Source: Ascidiella aspersa
Taxonomy: Eukaryota
Assembly: GCA_963924565.1 (NCBI GenBank)
Contig: OZ004615.1
Coordinates: forward strand, 20,460,001 to 20,524,000
Direction of reading: 5' to 3'
Length of the DNA: 64,000 nucleotides
In this document: piece by piece, positions 48,401 to 63,757 of the stretch
How positions within the stretch are numbered: position 1 is the first letter of the stretch
Layout of the letters: each line of letters opens with the position of its first letter
Position numbers and translations under genes: made by a program
Notes under the pieces: model-generated
Seen by the model: only the letters and a program-made list of their open reading frames with translations
Databases searched by the model: none
Told to the model about the DNA's origin: nothing

Positions 48401-51400
48401 CTAATTGCGAAGCTCGAGCCTAACCAAGCATTCTTGTGGGGATACAACGGTTGATACCTTCTCGTTACCAAGCGGAGGCAATTGCGGGGTGCCGCATCGA
48501 ACGTGAAACTTCTGAACGATTTTCACGAATACGATAAAGAACTCAATCCGGGCAATGCTTTCGCCGACGCAGTAGCGCGAACCGATCGAAAAAGGAATGA
48601 TCTTGTTCGAGTTGACGAACTTGCCTTCATCGTCGATGTGGCGCCGAGGGTCGAACCTGTGCGGCTCCGGCCAAGTCTCAGGGTCCATGTGCGCTCCGTA
48701 GATGTTTGGCATCACCTTCAAAACATAATTCCAATCAGCATCAAATGTATGATCTACTGACGCTTCAGTAGTCCGTAAAGTTTGAAAAACATCAAGTTGG
48801 GAATTAAATCAAATTCGAAACAAGACCAAGGTTGCGTTATGAATATTCATGTGCAGTTGGTTTGTATTTGAAGTCCTAATACGACTCTAATATATATTAC
48901 TATACTCTCTCTGTATATAGATCTTATTGTGTTCGCCAAATAAGAAAGTATATGCGACAAATATAGATCTGTCGACAAATACATCCTTAAGTATGGTTTT
49001 TAAACATTGGCATAGGTAACAGCTAGATGTTAAATGGTGCGTTTCACCCCCATTAAGCTCTCATTGGAAGAATCACTCTAGAAATCGTTTCAACATTTAA
49101 CAAAGCATGCTATGTACTTCAGGCTTGTATCTTTTACCCAACAAAGTTGGAGTCAACGAGTGATTTAGTGTATCTGAAAACTCGCCACTAAAAAATTAAT
49201 AAAAAAACTTCAGAGAAAAATATATAGAGAGATATTTCTCACAGGGGTTCCTTTGGGAATCACAAAGCCATTAATTTCGACCTCTGCGCCCGTCATGTGC
49301 TGAACGGCAAGCGGAACCACGGTCTGGTGTCTTTGCACTTCTAGAATGAAGGCGCGGGTAAAAGGCATCTCCGACCGCTTTGCCATGATCGGTATACCTG
49401 AAGATCCTGCGTAACAGCGATGCTGGTTTTTAAAATGAATGTAAAACAGCTAAAACACATATTTGATATATGCAACAACAGTTATCATTTACTAAAGTGA
49501 TACGCCAGCATTAAAACGGACCAAGGTCGCTTTCCTTTTTCATACATTTTTATATGCATTTAATTTTACTAGAAACTCCAAAGACTGTGGGATATTTTCA
49601 CAGAAACCCTTTGCGACGATTTTCGGACCCTAATAAGTTAACAAGGTTGCTTTAACTTTTTCAGCCACAAACGTGTGCATTTTCTGTGCGGAAACATAGG
49701 TATTTATCATTCTATCTATATCTCGCGCATTATGGCGCTGTTTTACAACCGTTGGTAAATATCATCTCGGGCGGCGGCACGCTCCGACATTCGATGCCTT
49801 GGTTCGTTTGTTGCTTAAAAGTACCCCTTTGTACTCGATTTACATCAATATTGAAATTACAACACGCGACAATTTTGCGTTAATTACGTGGAACGAAACC
49901 AGGTTTCTCGTTCTAAGCCAGTGATTCTAAACTTTTTGAAAAAGCGCCCTCCTTTTACAATTTAACAAAACTCTCGCCCCACCTTTTCGAGGTAACTTGC
50001 ATCAATGCGAAGGATGTTACTGTTTTTTGGTATACCAAATGTTTAATTCGAGTATTAGAAGCAGGGAAATATCATTTCGCCTTAATGTTTAGTCTTAATC
50101 ACACAGAGTTTGTCAATTTCTCGCGCCCCCCTTGTAAACCTCACACGCCCCCCAGTTTAAGAACCACTGTTCTTAGCCATCTATACAAGCCATTTACAAG
50201 CTGAGCGCTCCAGGCCTTACAGTACATTTATAAAACCATATAAGAATGCAACCCACATCCCCTAAAACCGTCGTGTTTTCCTGCTGTTCGGCAAATCGTA
50301 ATGTCGACGTGAAACTCACAGCAGCTTACCAAGCACGGTCAACACTTCCCGTTCAATCAGTCTCGCGTACTCGGGGTAGTTGAGCATGTAGACGATAAAC
50401 CAGGCCAGCGACGTCGCTACAGTGTCAGTTCCCGCCACGAACAGGTCCCGGCATACGGTCACCAACTGGATGTCCTGTGGAAAATTAAGTGTTTTGCATA
50501 TTAATCACCCATGCTGGCAATTTTGTGCGTCCATTAAATGCTGAATATATGGTCACAATACTATATAATAACCAAGCTAGCGATCTCGGTTTCATGTTTG
50601 TATCAAGTTAATAAACGTTTGTGTTGTTAATATCAGATAGGCATTTGTTAAACGCAGATATCAAATATATAGTACAAACGTTTGGCTGTCTACAGATCGT
50701 AAGCTTAATTAACTTCTGGTTTTACTTTCTGGTCATCCAATCGCAAGTATGGTGTGTGTTATTTTCTAAGGCGTGCACATAAAAAAACTTGAATATTTAC
50801 ACTTAATCGAATTCCAAACAAGTTGCGTCTATATGAACAACGGTTCGATATTGGTTGTTTTCGGAAATCATTTGTTTGGAGCATGCTTTGGTGATTTATC
50901 AAATGGACTCCGAAATGCAGAGGTTACGTGGGGCTTCTTTATGTGCAGTTATGGGAAGTCGAAAATCAGTAAATAAACATGTTAGGGTGTGTAACAAAAA
51001 GTGTAAAAATCACGTACTGTAAATCCCTGTTCCTTGGTTCTATTGCCGTGCTTTTGCTCGTAGAGAAACGCGTCGATAAAATCTCCGATGTATTTTGGGT
51101 CGAATCGCTTTTCGTGATCCGCTATCTCTTCTCTAATAACGTCTGCAAAAAAACGCATCAAAAACAGTTCCAATTACGAAAGCGTTATAATTGTAAAATT
51201 GTTCTTCCGACTAAAGGTAATTAAAGTACCAACGTTTCGACCAACACCTATATTTGCCCGAATAGGTGGGCAAAACGTTGGCATTTTGCTAAAATTTTGC
51301 CGGAAGAACAATTTTACAATTGAAACAATTCCAGGCAGCAACAGTAGATTCATTGCTATAATGTTATAATTTCATTTCAAAGTTCTTTAAAACTCCTCAT

Positions 51401-54400
51401 TAACATAGTGGCCGTGTCCAATCTTTTAAAACGAACGCGCTAATCATTTAGTTTAACATTGGTACAAAATAGTCATGCTTACCCATGATATAGCTCATTC
51501 TCTTGTTAGACAAATGCAATGCCCCTGAAAAAGGGGGGACGTTTGCTAGAGAGCTAAATACGTTGATCATGGCAAGTTTGTTGCCGTAAGCTGGATCTGA
51601 AAGGCTGACAAACAATTTGATTTAATCAACGTATTAATCAAACGACCTAAACATTTATGCGGCAACAAAGACGACCGACTTATAAAAATAAGTTGCCGGG
51701 TAATAAGAACGTGCAGACAATTTAAGTTCTAGTGTTAATTTCAATTTATATTATATGTAGGACCATATACTTAATTTGTCGTACAACAAAAATAAGTTTA
51801 TTCTAGGAAAAAAAATCAAACTGGTGAAACATTGTCGTTGGCCTATACTTACACAAGGTTCATGGCGTCTATCAGCTTATTGAAGCGTTCGTCTCCATAC
51901 TCAAAACTCCTTCCGAAAGCTGTTTGTGACACTACGTTCGCAGTTACACAATTGAAGGCTTCCTGAACGAAATCATTATTTTAGATAAATCTCGAAGATC
52001 GTATTATTGATTGTCGTGTAAAGATTATATTGTGGCCCTTTATTTGAACAACTGTAGAGAATACTTTAGCAAAGCTAGCAATTAAGGTTATGGACACCAT
52101 GGAAATATTTTAAAAGATATACATATTTCGCCAGCTAGGCATCTTTAGTATATCTTAATTGAATATTCTGCAGTTACTGATAAGGAATTAAGGTGGATAT
52201 TTATCTTGCAGGGGTTCAAGGTGATTTCCAGTATCACACTTTTAATCCAACAAGTGCGATTAAATAATTCAAACCGTGATGGGCTTAAATACATTATATT
52301 TTCTTTAATTACACTTGTCAGGGACTTACCTTCAAATCGATGACTTGTCCGGAAGTACTTAAATCGTTCAGATGCGAAACAAACGCGTCTGCTTCGTTGT
52401 TTACGATCGATTCCATTTTGGTTTTTCCCAGCGTTTGTCTTCGGTGAAATTAAAACAGAAACCAGTTATTGGAATGCTTCGTTCATATTAATGATAGGCT
52501 ACTATAATAAATGTGTAACGTCAAGGTTGCACATCTTAAATTGTGGCGAGTTATTCTGTGCAATCCGTGGCGCAAAATACGGCGGGGTATCTTCACAGTA
52601 TAGGGATGTCCGATAATATCGGATCGAAGCCGATACCCGATTCCAAGTAGTAGCATTGGTCGTCCGATACTAGGTTGGTATCGGTGCCGATCCGATGCCG
52701 AATTAACATAAAATATGTGGACTTGTAATCCAATCAGCGATTTTATAAATTTATTAAATAATCTTAGGTTAACAACTAAACGTAACTAACCTAATATCAA
52801 TGAAACAAAAAATTCGACATATTAACCTGTAAAACATTACCTCTGAACGATTTAATTTCATCTATTTTCCTTTTTAGGTATCGCATTAAATTACATTGTA
52901 CTTACTCTTTTATAAATTTAACGGCAAACGCTTTGTGCGTCTTGTATTGGTCGCCGTACGGTTTGAAGATGATTCCGACATATTTCGTCAGTTTACTTAC
53001 TCTTTACTTACTCTTTGATAAATTTCAAAGCAAACGCCTTGTGTGCCTTGTACGCTTCGCCATATCGCTTAAAGATGATTCCGTCGTGTTTCGTCAGTGT
53101 GCAAAATAGTGCGATCCAAGGACGGTCAGAAAACGTGACGCCTTGCTTGACGAAAGCCTGCGAACACATATGTTTAACTCGATCGTGTTGTATATGTAAC
53201 GTTTAATCGACACGCAGTTTTTCCCCAAATACTTCTGCCGATACGTGTGTCGTTTATGTTGAGTAATTAAATTAAGTAACGCCCAAGGCCTCGGATATCC
53301 CAAATAAGCCTGAGCTATTTCTCCAGCAATTGATTAGGTTCACACAATGCTGTAAACACGTGAATTACAATGCTTTATCGGGAACACACAGTAAGGCCTA
53401 TAGCGCCACATAAAGCATAACACTAAGGCAAACGACATAATAAAGCCAAATACGCAGAATATCCACGGCAAAATAAACTCCGAAATCGTCTGAATATAAG
53501 ATCTGTTGGAGTAAGTGCTAAAACAATCGAAATAAGGCCTAAGAAAAATTGTGGGGAGGGATATGGGAAGATCTGACATAGGCCGTTTTCGACGTTTGGG
53601 CGCCTTAGTTTAAATGGCGTCGTTAGGGCGACGCTTTTTGGCACCGGACTGTTTACCCTGTTTGGGGTTAGTGGTGCGACTAATAGGTAGGGTTAGAATT
53701 TGGGTTAAGGTAGTAATTATAGGAGTTAGTAATGAAGGGTTGAGTTCGGGGTTAACTATAAGGTTTTATTGACCTTGTTCTTGGCTATTTAGGTCTTATT
53801 CCGTCGGGTTTATGACTTATTCGGAATACTACGTTATTACAACTATTACCCTCGATAAACTGTATAAACGCGTGTAACTTTGCAATGTAGCTGCATACCG
53901 CCTTTTCGCTGAACTTATTTTGCATTTATTGAAGCCTAAAAACATATCAAACAATCTTTTCCAGGGCTAGCCGGATATTCCAGATTATACGTCGATATAA
54001 TATCGCAAAGATAGAATATACTGTGTTGATAAGCCACTAAACCAGTGATTCTCAACCGCGGCTCTGAGAGCCGCATGCGGCTCTCACTAACGGAGTGAAA
54101 AATTAGTTAGTAGTAGCAGAATTGCAAAAAGGAAGTAAGAGAAATCAAGAATTAATGAATTGCATCAGAAAGGATCCCGAGTACGAAGTACTGATGTTAC
54201 TCCCGGGTACGAAGTACTAAAGTTAGCGGGTTACTTCCGTCCTGCTGTTTAAAATAATTTTGTGGTTTGTGACAAGGTGTCTAAATACATTCAGTGCAAA
54301 TCCGTTTTATTTTTAATCAAACTGTTTTCTTTAAAAAAATAATTACCTCGTAAGTATGCACTAATATTTCAATTAGACCTTCATGGACCCCCTAAAACTA

Positions 54401-54963
54401 GTTCACGCACCCCCAAGGGGTCCATGGACCCCAGTTTAAGAACCCCTGAGCTATGGCAGTAAGAAATAGGTATTTCAACAGTGTTAATTAGTTAGCCCAG
54501 GCTCACGTAATGTAGATTAGTTGTTTTCTTGTTGCTTTCTTACTGTTTTTTAATTATATGCCTACTGTTGTTTTTTATGCGGCTCCTTGCAAACCTTAGG
54601 TTTGAAATGCGGCTCTGGCACAAAAAAAGGTTGAGAATCACTGCACTAAACCCTATGTTAGCTTCTCACGTTGTTGATGGCGTCGAACGTGTTGAGAATA
54701 ACCATGTCAGTGAATCCCAGCCGAACCGACATCACAGGACCGTACCTCGAAAGGCTCCACTTCTTGAAGTCTTTGTGCGGATAGTCAGACATGGAAGGGG
54801 CGATCCCGAAAACGGGAAGTCCCCTGGGGCCGGGAGGGAACCGCGGGTGGGGCCTGCGGCGCCAAATCAGAAACAGGAGCCCGGCGAAAACGCACAGCCA
54901 CGTCCAAAAGTTTACCATAGATATCTGGCTGGCCACGTATTGCACTATTCCCCAGGTTACCAT
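48401..54963 (-). CDS. Cytochrome P450, clan 2 (CYP2-like, second subfamily), gene G6; 9 exons, ~509 aa
   Basis: Exons 54963-54670, 53157-53012, 52438-52330, 51962-51853, 51604-51483, 51142-51018, 50474-50330, 49406-49243, 48715-48401. Motifs AGTDTV, EVQR, PHRFDP, FSIGSRYCVG. Confidence 0.92.
49919..50169. mobile_element. hAT-type MITE, G6 intron 7
   Basis: TIR cagtgattctaaac/gtttaagaaccactg; TSD ttctaagc/ttcttagc. Confidence 0.8.
51189..51321. mobile_element. Foldback hairpin, probably an inverted Penelope-like pLTR remnant, in G6 intron 5
   Basis: Perfect 21-bp outer arms aattgtaaaattgttcttccg/cggaagaacaattttacaatt; inner arms carry (G)AAACGTTGG hammerhead 3' halves. Confidence 0.6.
52601..52705. 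mobile_element. 5' end of a TAGGGATG-type hAT element with ccgat subterminal repeats
   Basis: tagggatgtccgataatatcgg...ccgatac...atcggtgccgatccgatgccg; no matching other end was seen. Confidence 0.5.
52906..52992 (-). pseudogene. Second, divergent copy of the 3' half of exon 2, inside G6 intron 2
   Basis: Encodes LTKYVGIIFKPYGDQYKTHKAFAVKFIKE followed by its own GTAAGT donor; the main exon reads LTKHDGIIFKRYGEAYKAHKAFALKFIKE. Confidence 0.85.
54043..54643. mobile_element. Young hAT-type MITE in G6 intron 1, with a nested partial element (~54380-54448)
   Basis: Perfect 15-bp TIR cagtgattctcaacc/ggttgagaatcactg; perfect TSD cactaaac. Confidence 0.9.
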
Positions 54964-59301: not shown

Positions 59302-62300
59302 TTAATTTCGAATCTCGAGCCTGACGAGGCATTCGTGCGGCGAAACAACCGCCGAAACGTTCTCGTTATCGAGAGGAGGCAAGTGCGGATTGGCACTTCG
59401 GACGTGAAACTTCTGCACTATCTTGACAAATACCATGAAGAACTCGATCCGGGCAACGCTGTCGCCGACGCAGTAGCGAGAACCTATCGAGAAAGGAATG
59501 ATCTTGTTGGAGTTGACGAACTTGCCTTCGTCGTCGATGTGGCGCCGAGGGTCGAACCTGTGCGGCTCCGGCCAAGTCTCAGGGTCCATGTGTGCTCCGT
59601 AGATGTTCGGCATCACCTTTAAGAGACCATAGTCGGTATTATTTACCGATGGCTTGTAAACTTAAAAACACTACAATGTTGATCATGAAGCGTGAACATA
59701 ATGGACTGATCCAATGCGCCGTTTGTTCCTTTTTCGCCAATTAAACATTATTGATCTTGTTACAAATGAAGCGGCAAGCTCGCGATTTATGAAATGTTAT
59801 CCTAATAATGGCCAACCATGAAACCTCGTGAAAAAACAGATGGTGAACAGTCTTTTAATGCTAAAAATTTCGGATCAACATGACTCATCTTGGGCCTAAG
59901 ATACGCGAAAGGCTAGAAAGGACATAATAGACTATATAATTATGTACTTGAGTTGGTCAAACAAGCGGTTCAGTCGCCCAATAATGCCAGCACATACGGT
60001 GAAGGGACACTCTATCGTGTCACGGCAATAGTGTCCGAAAACACCCAAGAACATTAAAAGGCATCCAGCTTACAGGGGTTCCTTTTGGAATCACGAATCC
60101 GTTGATCTCAACCTCGGCAAGCGTCATGTGTTGAACAGCAAGCGGCACCATGGCCTGGACTCTTTGCACTTCGAGGATAAAGGCGCAGGTAAAGGGCATC
60201 TCCGACCGCTTCGACATGCTCGGGATACCCGAAGATCCTGCGTAACAGCAGGTTAACACCGAACGTATATAAATTAATATCGGTTGAATAAGACTTTTAT
60301 GACAGGTTCATTGAAGATGTTTGCGGCCAAATATTCGTATGGATTTTTAATCTAAATACAACACTGTGACGAAATCTACCATATTTCAGCATTATGCATG
60401 TTCTGTTGCCTTTCATTAGCAAGACCTTCTTTTTGACCTCTTGTATCTTTTGTAGAGATGCTTTAAAATCAGTTAACTTTAGTGTCTTCTTATTTGTTTT
60501 CTCGGGTTATATGCGCCGACACCGCGGGATCAATTGGTTCAGTTAACTGCGGTTTTGCGCCAAAATTTCAAGATTAAATGACAATTTCGGATGACAACAG
60601 TCTCTCTAGTTCAGGGGCCGGGAACCTTATTAGCTCAGGGAGCACTAAAAGCCAAATATTCCTGGTTGTGTTTCCATGGGAGCCATATAATACTATTAAC
60701 ATCTAGTTATAGGTTGGCAAAAATAGTAAATTGAAAAGGGAAGTTTTATTTGTTCTCATTTAAAGGGCAGAACATGAACTAGCTAAGTTTGCACAATTTT
60801 AAAACGGAGTTCCGTTAAAAGAATAGGGCCTTTTGAATATTAAGAGATTCCTTCAAACGGGATAGCAGTTTAAAAAATAAACAGGATTAGCGCGAAGCGC
60901 CGAAAATGTGCTACTATATGTAATTAAAAAGGAAATATAAAATTAGGAAAGCGGCCATGGTCGCGTGCAGTTTTATTTAGATCATGCTGTGAAATGATAG
61001 CTTAGATTTATTTGCAAGCAAGATTATTTAATCAAAAGAGCCATATTGCGTCACAAAAAGAGCCATATATGGCGTCACAAAAAGAGCCATATATGGCGTC
61101 ATAAAAAGAGTCATATATAGAACCCTAAGTTCCCGAACCCTGCTCTAGTTCTGTGCCATTTACAAGCGTTGGTTTGTTTGTAGGGTCGCCTGAAAAATCA
61201 CCGTTATTTCCCTGCCGGCTGAATAACTGTGCAGTTAAAGTTTACACGTAGTAGCTTACCAAGCACGCTCAGCACTTCCTGTTCAATTTGCTTTTCGAAT
61301 TCTGGGTAGTTGAGCATGTAGACAAACAGCCAGGCAATCTCCATCGCTGTGGTGTCAGTTCCTGCCACGAACATGTCACGGCAAGTGGTCACCAACTGGA
61401 TGTCCTGCGTTAAGTTGAAATGTTTTGCATTGTTTTTGCATTGTAAATTAATTTCCTATGCAAAGGTTAAATGATGGCGATATAGCGAACTAAACAAACT
61501 AATGGCAAATCGGTTACACGTATTTATACTGTAAAACGGAAAGAACTATTGTGTTTGTTGTTATGCATCAACCGGTACGGCCCGAGGTTTAGGGACTCCA
61601 GATGCTGGTTATGCGGGAACGTCATTTCTACAAATAAAGATAACCATCGCAGAGAAACTTGTTCGAGTAGAAAACAGGATTTTTTGTGGTTCTGACAGCA
61701 TACTTCTCCTCGATTTTGCTCTACTGTCATATTCGAAATAATAGGCTGTATAGTATTGTACTTTAATTTTGTTTTTTTTATTTCGTTGTTTTGCATCACG
61801 CGGGTTTGACAATCCTTTGTTTAAATTAAGACAAAAATAAGGTCAACAAGGGTACCTGCCTTTCGTTATATACAATATTCAGAAAACTCTGTTATCACTT
61901 GTATTTAAAACCATTAAACACCTACTGTAAATCCGTGTTCCTTGGTTCTATTGCCGTGCTTTTGCTCGTAGAGAAACGCATCGATATAATCTCCGATGTG
62001 TTTTGGGTCGAATCGCTTCTCGTGTTCCGCTATCTCTTCTCTAATAACGTCTGCAAGAAGTCATATGTGAAGCCTGTAACAGTTTAACCTCTGTCTAACA
62101 AGAAACGTTTTTAAATACATTTTGTTTACTGCATTCCAAAGCCATTGTAGGTCGTTAATACTTCAAAAAAGAAATTGGAGACAAATTCATTTTGAACCGT
62201 ACTACAAATATAATTTCTCTTTATTTCGAAAGTTAAGGAACATCAGGGTGGCTAGGCAAATCAACGGTTGACTTAACTGATAGAAAGTTAGAATAAGTAA

Positions 62301-63757
62301 AGGCAAAGTATATAGGTAATGGTTGTAGCTGTTTCTTTACATTGGCCGAAAGTGGTGGTGTCGGGGATGTCTGAACGACTCAGATACATAGGTAACCGAC
62401 CTTTGGCGTCATTTACGGCATACGTTTATAATCGACAACCATCTACTGCAGCGGTTCTTAAAGTGGGCGACCGCCCCTTTTGGGCGAAAGAGATATAAAT
62501 GAGGGATAAAACCTTGACCGGGGTGATAGGGGTGTGTGTGTGTGAGGGGGGAGTGCATATAAGTTTGACACTGGTCTATCACTTTGTGTTGGAACTATAT
62601 AGAACTGTTAGTTGTAGCTGTTCCGAAATGCATCGAGACAGTTAAGGAACTACTTAACTATACTATATAGAAAGAGTGGGCAACTTACGGCTCGCGGGCC
62701 AGATCCGGCCCGCCAACGCAAATCATCCGACCCGCGATCTATTTTACAAACTGGGCACGAGTCCTTTGTTCATATTTTTTGGCTATTTTAACCACGAAAA
62801 AGCAAATATATTTTTGCGCTTTGTTAATCTTGTTCCTCCATCGGGTGTAAATTGAAAAATACCATAGTTTTATTGCTGGTGTTATAACAAGATGCGTAAC
62901 TCTACACAGTTAACATCTGACAGCCCGCGGAGACCTTTTTAAGATTGGTTTTGGCCCGCGAATAGAAAATGTTGCCCCCCTGCTATATAGCATAAAAGGA
63001 TTTTTCGTTTTGCTTACCCATGATATAGCTCATCCTCTTGTTAGATAGGGATAACGCGCCGGAAAAAGGTGGGACGTTTGACAGGAAGCTAAACACGTTG
63101 ATCATGGCAAGTTTGTTTCCGTAAGCGGGATCTGAAAGCCTAAAGAAAGCAATTCCATGTATCAATATTAGGTTAATTACACGTGCTGATGGAACGTTAA
63201 ATTAGGCAGTGGATAATAATAACATGCAGACTATTTAATGTTTAACATTATTTTTGTTTAATAGCATGTCGAGTGAATTACGGTAGATTTATTTAGTCGT
63301 TCACCAGTACGGAACTTATTGCTTCTGTAGGCCTAATGATCTCAATAGAAAATGCTAAGATGAAACTGACGGCAAAAATGAGAACTTATGTAATTTGTAG
63401 TAAATGTTTGTTTACTTACACATTATACACGGCGTCTATAAGTTTGTTGAAGCTTTCGTCGCCATACTCGAATCTCCTTCCAAAAGCCGTTTGTGCCACT
63501 ATGTTCGCAGTTACACAATTGAGCGATTTCTAAAAAAATAGTTTTGGAAAAAATGTCAATTACTCATTAAACTGATGCCTTGACCCTGCATAAATATGTG
63601 TGATCAATAATTCAAAATTTCAAACTAATATTTATCTAGCGCCTATACCTTGAAGTCGATAGCTTCCCCGTTTGCACTTAGATCCTTAAGGTACGAAACA
63701 AATGTATCTCCTTCGTGGTTTACCAACGACTCCATTCTGGATTTGCCGAGCGTTTGT
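59302..63757 (-). CDS. Cytochrome P450, clan 2 (second subfamily), gene G7; 5'-partial (exons 3-9, exons 1-2 beyond the window)
   Basis: Exons 63757-63649, 63529-63420, 63139-63018, 62050-61926, 61404-61260, 60237-60074, 59616-59302. Motifs AGTDTT, EVQR, FSIGSRYCVG. Confidence 0.9.
60612..61142. mobile_element. hAT-type MITE, G7 intron 7
   Basis: Ends caggggccgggaac/gttcccgaaccctg; perfect TSD ctctagtt; internal aaaagagccatatatggcgtcac tandem units at ~61034-61117. Confidence 0.85.
62671..62982. mobile_element. hAT-type MITE, G7 intron 5
   Basis: Ends gtgggcaac...gttgcccccctg; ggcccgc motifs; perfect TSD ctatatag. Confidence 0.8.

Follow-up and report, generated by a model that had tools for sequence, protein, structure and literature searches.

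The window analysed here, a stretch of 64,000 nucleotides (C9:20460001-20524000), contains P450 genes of nine exons each, arranged in tandem as a cluster on its minus strand. The gene of primary interest, G6 (54963-48401, minus strand), has an intact frame of 509 aa with no internal stop, and the 509-aa frame of G7, whose exons 3-9 lie within the window and exons 1-2 just past its edge, is likewise intact. The open reading frame of G6 shows the heme-binding FxxGxRxCxG, the ExxR and the I-helix AGxDT sequences, which we take to be P450 motifs, and the Pfam model PF00067 (p450) scored above its cut-off for exons 1 and 9, while exon 2 alone gave no match. By domain, motifs and frame, G6 is a cytochrome P450. 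Its best match in the PDB was CYP2R1 (E 6e-19), with CYP17 and CYP2s next, and four of the five clusters looked up for its relatives bear tunicate names ('2U1/2L1/2C-like' or '18a1-like'); these matches and names would place it in the CYP2 clan. When exon 9 was compared with protein representatives, tunicate relatives were found at 50-59% aa identity, the nearest named single-domain matches being CYP2-clan P450s of Clavelina ('CYP2U1-like', '18a1-like') and Ciona ('2C31-like'), all automatic names; going by these relatives, the DNA likely comes from an ascidian. In comparison with these named proteins, the intron positions of G6 and G7 are those of the family expansion in their own genome. G6 and G7 form a subclade of their own with no third member in the assembly (308 Mb; tree of 20 models), the nearest matches outside it being 54% (exon 1) and 68% (exon 9) identical in amino acids, and a protein search with exon 9, covering longer candidates and representatives, found no ortholog of either gene. 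Because this subclade has only two members, exon-by-exon trees cannot reveal incongruence within it.

The features upon which the analysis is based are as follows (window positions unless indicated otherwise).

54670-54963, minus strand: G6 exon 1, 294 nt; pS of 0.26 to G7 exon 1, with 12 identical nt into intron 1; Pfam p450 match
53012-53157, minus strand: G6 exon 2, working copy, 146 nt; of G7 type, with 94.5% of nucleotides and 47/48 amino acids identical to G7 exon 2
52992-53016, minus strand: perfect period-11 repeat spanning the exon end and donor
52992-53011, minus strand: spacer of 20 nt with donor 1 (GT at 53011) and donor 2 (GT at 53000); in-frame TAA on read-through
52906-52991, minus strand: relic, a diverged 86-nt 3' half of exon 2 (C-terminal part of SRS1, helix C); likely former G6 sequence, untranslatable
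52886-52905, minus strand: donor 3 and the intron start behind the relic, 15/20 identical to the spacer
48401-52438, minus strand: G6 exons 3-9 (52438-52330, 51962-51853, 51604-51483, 51142-51018, 50474-50330, 49406-49243, 48715-48401)
59302-63757, minus strand: G7 exons 3-9; exons 1 and 2 are outside the window at G000:C9:20525662-20525369 and 20524590-20524445 (exon 2 is the likely donor)

Elsewhere in the window, an extra set of exons 6-9 (20270-18922) lies behind those of G3 (23415-21776) and is either a partial duplicate or an alternative 3' half, and orphan fragments, three of exon 1 and one of exon 9, lie between the cluster genes (37759-37634, 46879-46766, 10345-10178 and 39410-39315). 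Intron 1 of G6 contains a short, presumably hAT-like element (54643-54043) that has inverted repeats at its termini and a target duplication of 8 bp, and within which a second repeat is nested.

Anatomy of G6 exon 2 and its coding capacity

In a BLAST comparison of the window with itself, the relic matched exon 2 at 78.4% identity over 102 nt (E 2e-19) and outscored every other match in the window. The initial annotation had described a second exon-2 3' half with its own donor behind the exon; this half is present, 86 nt long (87 if one shared A is included), with its donor at 52905, and a codon comparison reproduced the 6 synonymous and 7 replacement codons by which it was said to differ from G6 exon 2, with no stop and no indel. 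The duplication of about 10 nt reported for the exon end and donor also exists, but its period is 11 and it runs from 53016 to 52992 with 14 nt perfectly matched, and the second donor follows base 53001 and not 53002. All three donors consist of one identical 9-mer and donor scoring could not separate them. A perfect repeat of the period-11 kind was found near the donor in none of the 279 other family intron starts, one poly-T run aside.

Use of donor 1 preserves the 509-aa frame, whereas splicing at donor 2 or donor 3 brings in a stop at codon 148. Judged by this stop and by its want of an acceptor, the relic cannot be expected to add anything to the protein. A role for it as an alternative, mutually exclusive exon was rejected, as the nearest AG falls inside the 20-nt spacer with none directly before the relic, and as the stop at codon 148 would follow. 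In the RNA run X7, of which 6% was read, depth was 0-0.11 over exon 2 and the relic and about 1 over exon 9. The two additional identical donors could cut the output of G6 through mis-splicing.

In alignment with CYP2R1, G6 exon 2 falls on the corresponding region, and we take it to cover B'-C/SRS1. In vertebrate CYP2s, helix C carries WxxxR; in exon 2 of all 29 family members that were aligned it reads F/Y-K-x-Q/H/E-K.

Exon-limited exchange between G6 and G7

The pS values between G6 and G7 for exons 1-9 are 0.26, 0.19, 0.51, 0.40, 0.53, 0.09, 0.38, 0.49 and 0.41, and they are heterogeneous across exons (chi-square P 0.003). Against the other six exons, exon 6 (P 0.0007), exon 2 (P 0.007) and exon 1 (P 0.011) stand out. 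Exon 6, the closest of all (51142-51018 in G6, 62050-61926 in G7), has 2 synonymous differences in 23 sites between unalignable flanking introns and is by this measure the exon that was probably homogenised last. The introns of the two genes do not align, apart from one repeat within intron 1 and a brief segment of intron 4. Reference values for intron divergence were obtained from 35 gene models with 280 introns, kept out of about 47 close family members after one duplicate chain and one model with a stop, and then three incomplete and three stop-containing models, had been dropped and two loci had given no model. Of the 595 family pairs, 48 passed the similarity filter, and those with pS up to 0.5 (14 pairs) were considered further. 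In 11 pairs with pS up to 0.20, which are drawn from 5 clusters and are not independent, 86 of the 88 intron pairs align, whereas in three pairs at pS 0.31-0.43 intron alignment survives in scraps only.

Because pS differs among exons while the introns do not align, exchange limited to exons is indicated for G6 and G7, which thus carry tracts of raised identity within otherwise older paralogs, as would be expected from ectopic conversion. An inverted paralog pair on C2 (about 25.586 and 25.575 Mb), with pS of 0.05 for exon 1, 0.13 for exon 9 and 0.36-0.57 elsewhere and with no alignable intron, appears to be a case of exon-limited conversion elsewhere in the family. Such exchange, seen independently in exon 6 and in the C2 pair, would suffice here, and G6 is better described as a probable mosaic of conversion tracts common with G7 (exons 1, 2 and 6) than as a two-part chimera.

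As regards function, the earlier proposal that the B-C loop (SRS1) had been swapped holds in so far as the exon covers the B'/B-C loop/C-helix region; however, the transfer gave G6 no new SRS1, and it is likely that through the exchange the SRS1 of G6 came to resemble that of G7 (47/48 residues). The functional stakes look small, as some three residues would have been shifted towards G7 and the relic is untranslatable.

The relic and the order of events

The identity of the relic to exon 2 is about 78% for G6 and G7 alike, and the relic sequence was found in no other gene of the assembly, the best others reaching 63%. From G6 exon 2 it differs by 10.5 synonymous differences in 17.3 sites and 8.5 replacement differences in 66.7 sites. 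When the G6 exon was mutated neutrally to 19 differences (10,000 runs, six mutation settings), the synonymous count of the relic was reached with P 0.0005-0.012. On this excess, simple neutral decay of a copy of the gene's own exon can be rejected, and the relic likely diverged as coding sequence, mostly as the initial annotation had proposed. The absence of a stop is uninformative on its coding history, because 44-61% of the neutral simulations with 19 changes were also free of stops. Between the 3' halves, G6 and G7 exon 2 differ at 5/84 nt and the relic and G6 exon 2 at 19/84 (Fisher P 0.003); the pS between relic and exon, 0.61, resembles that of the unconverted exons 3, 5 and 8 (0.49-0.53).

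At the 16 sites where G6 and G7 exon 2 agree with each other and differ from the relic, the relic has the base of the C5 outgroup at 6 (P 0.002-0.009) and that of the majority of 27 sequences at 5, for which the retention of outgroup states has P 0.02-0.04; the two exons match C5 at 6 of these sites and the majority at 7. Three of the replacements in the relic (Pro, Asp, Thr) are the C5 state, whereas Tyr, Val, Gln and Val look derived in the relic or are ambiguous, one of them at a Leu that is fixed in 27/27 outgroups. The amino acid is kept at 8 of the 9 near-invariant codons. In a maximum likelihood tree, the relic branched outside a clade of G6 and G7 exon 2 (UFBoot 91, SH-aLRT 55), but the AU test with 2000 replicates rejected neither alternative topology (p 0.48 for the relic with G6 exon 2, 0.12 for the other), and the branching by itself does not decide the origin of the relic. 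The grouping of the relic with G7 exon 2 that had been put forward as a check was not recovered, the exons of G6 and G7 pairing together instead, and it is the working exon 2 of G6 that proved to be of another paralog's type, namely that of G7. The substitution pattern suggests that the relic likely evolved as the coding sequence of a separate gene and decayed afterwards.

The spacer bears upon how the two halves came to lie in tandem. Its first 10 nt equal the start of G7 intron 2, and AAAG at intron positions +7 to +10 occurs in 2 of the 280 family introns, namely G7 intron 2 and the G6 spacer; from this match and from the position of the relic, the direction of transfer was likely G7 to G6. 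The spacer is also 15/20 identical to the intron start behind the relic, with 9/14 matches beyond the donor consensus, a level that one of the 279 other intron starts attains; this suggests that the duplicated unit would be G6's own 106 nt. The period-11 repeat may be due either to slippage or to templated synthesis. The microhomology of 1 nt and this repeat (0/279 controls) would fit an end-joining duplication, but the filler is also 15/20 identical to the old intron start, and the initial description of it as a templated insertion is one of two readings. Besides G6, exon-end copies were found in two of the 280 introns of the 35 models, both repeating their own intron start. Intron 3 of G5 (43377-43270) holds a diverged tandem duplication of the self type, in which the final 37 nt of exon 3 (84%) recur together with about 31 nt of intron start and a second donor; in intron 1 of a C6 gene (G000:C6 about 23308810-23308980, L071), the final 35 nt of exon 1 recur (89%) and the intron start is repeated.

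The history that we favour, held on an even balance of confidence, is a single event in which a one-ended conversion from G7 was finished by end joining and the old exon half of G6 was left behind. A break would have occurred about 60 nt into G6 exon 2; its upstream end would have invaded G7 exon 2 and been extended through the rest of that exon and some 10 nt into the G7 intron, where homology stops; synthesis may then have slipped or switched template for 10 further nt; and the copied end would have been sealed, through a microhomology of 1 nt, to the opposite side of the break, which bore the old G6 3' half, its donor and intron 2. The relic, now behind the first donor, would have decayed as intron from then on. 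A spliced-RNA template was rejected, since all introns are retained and the shared sequence includes bases of an intron. With at most 4 replacements derived in the relic, its decay comes to roughly 0.07-0.13 changes per site, to which half of the exon-2 dS of 0.22 is close, an estimate resting on small counts (6 synonymous and about 4 replacement changes). We favour a single event mainly because of this agreement, which a history of two events must match by chance. Against it, the 15/20 match of the spacer would then have to be due to chance or to a template switch that returned to G6 in register, and both other exon-end duplications among the 280 introns are of the self type.

These two objections are the strength of a possible, if not probable, history in two steps, in which the 106 nt of G6 (the exon-2 3' half and 20 nt of intron already with the 11-nt slippage repeat) were duplicated in tandem and a separate, exon-limited conversion from G7 followed later. 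The relic would still be old G6 sequence and the filler old intron instead of a templated insertion, which we consider conceivable to the same limited degree. The 9/14 spacer match (1/279 controls), the like anatomy with shared intron starts in G5 and the C6 gene, and the recurrence of conversion between G6 and G7 all agree with this order of events. However, all 5 spacer differences must then lie on the downstream copy, a decay of 5/20 that exceeds the 5-8 changes at 67 replacement sites of the relic (Fisher P 0.05-0.17), and the duplication and conversion must have been near in time. Under the single event and under the two-step history alike, the relic is likely former G6 sequence and the working exon came from G7.

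A less probable account, close to the one first proposed for this locus, holds that a copy of the 5' part of G7, from the promoter through exon 2 with intron 1 included, was joined en bloc and out of register to exons 3-9 of another paralog through a non-homologous junction. Exons 1 and 2 together are indeed closer than exons 3-9 (pS 0.24 and 0.41, P 0.004), intron 1 begins with 12 identical nt, and a 110-nt element 1.5 kb upstream of G6 (56582-56473), which ends in a donor-like motif, has a counterpart of 75% identity lying 0.6 kb upstream of G7 and is carried only by these two genes in the 579 kb examined. This element, possibly a non-coding first exon or promoter, is either a point for the en-bloc account or merely a constrained piece of promoter, and it makes up all that aligns upstream (110 of 2500 nt, against 428-1102 of 1200 nt in C5 controls and 160 and 0 in C6 controls). 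Intron 1, which should have been carried along, is not shared: with repeats removed it scores 37, a value reached by 3 of 200 shuffles (which score up to 40), against 147-162 for three C5 pairs at pS 0.2. The repeat common to both introns was rejected as a sign of homology, as it lies within a further element in G6 but by itself in G7, with more copies nearby. As exon 6 is moreover closer than exons 1-2, a join of exons 1-2 to foreign exons 3-9 is disfavoured and we regard it as unlikely, although the calibration has no pair at pS 0.21-0.30, where exons 1 and 2 of G6 and G7 (0.24) fall. A crossover hybrid of the CYP2A6*12 type, that is a contiguous block with its introns and a single breakpoint, is disfavoured on the same two grounds, the unshared intron 1 and the closer exon 6, and with the same gap in the calibration.

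It is very unlikely that the relic simply duplicates the present G6 exon 2 and decayed neutrally, without a contribution from any paralog: the AU test does not reject a grouping of the relic with G6 exon 2 (p 0.48) and the spacer resembles the intron start behind the relic, but the synonymous excess (P 0.0005-0.012), the retention of outgroup states (P below 0.01 for C5, 0.02-0.04 for the majority) and the amino acids kept at 8/9 near-invariant codons argue against it. An assembly artefact joining two haplotypes or paralogs is scarcely credible, since, although the junction is spanned by one possibly non-independent run only, a short-read contig of that run, X1, covers 52670-53062, and with it the relic, the spacer and the adjoining 51 nt of exon 2, showing 0 differences and a depth of 75 similar to that of the flanks (X1 may be the assembled sample, so the contig checks the assembly and not the population), the relic sequence is at no other locus, and a divergence of 22% is not allelic.

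Related systems and significance

The processes likely to have acted on G6 are known, and no new one need be invoked. According to the portion of the C. elegans report drawn upon here, end joining of failed SDSA intermediates by Pol theta (helq-1/brc-1) yields tandem duplications of the copied stretch and templated insertions (PMC8654963), and the structure in G6 is similar in its head-to-tail arrangement of about 100 nt, short microhomology and locally repeated junction filler. It differs in that the copies described there are identical and made from the sister template, whereas in G6 the template was likely a paralog with a divergence of about 20%, and what remains is a natural allele of old standing. 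In mouse cells, homologous recombination that terminates without second-end homology uses microhomology or nucleotide addition, sometimes after template switching, as stated in the part of that study used here (PMC5104497). G6 resembles such termination in that synthesis would have entered non-homologous sequence and been closed by microhomology or added nucleotides, but the tracts of the mouse reporter, copied from a sister template, are of kilobase length, in contrast to about 150 nt from an ectopic template in G6, as deduced from its sequence. Exchange between tandem CYP2 paralogs is also described for human CYP2A7 and CYP2A6, where, within the section consulted, CYP2A6*12 (exons 1-2 of CYP2A7 and exons 3-9 of CYP2A6) is a crossover hybrid and CYP2A6*1B a 58-bp conversion (PMC5748630). 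The layout of *12 is that of the chimera first envisaged for G6, but in G6 intron 1 is unshared, the exchange has affected exons in patches and half an exon is left as a relic. Parts of three further reports served as background only (PMC4888836, PMC9299229, PMC4419802). No description of a natural half-exon relic from paralog conversion, or of this P450 cluster, was found in titles and the starts of abstracts, which provide a weak test.

Gene conversion usually erases the sequence that it replaces; in G6 the replaced half-exon likely survives, and the direction, the approximate age and the earlier SRS1 and helix C residues are therefore readable and testable. We suggest, tentatively, that the locus is a frozen single repair event in which the exon taken from the donor and the sequence displaced by it are both kept, and that it points to a general route in which, after the introns of paralogs have diverged, conversion runs out of homology where exons end, end joining finishes the repair, substrate-recognition exons are swapped singly and half-exon relics record overwritten enzymes (3 exon-end copies in 280 family introns). 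A caution follows for old P450 clusters, where exon trees can be reshuffled exon by exon without homology of the introns. The relic shows little sign of function, and its value is that of a fossil preserving an overwritten sequence.
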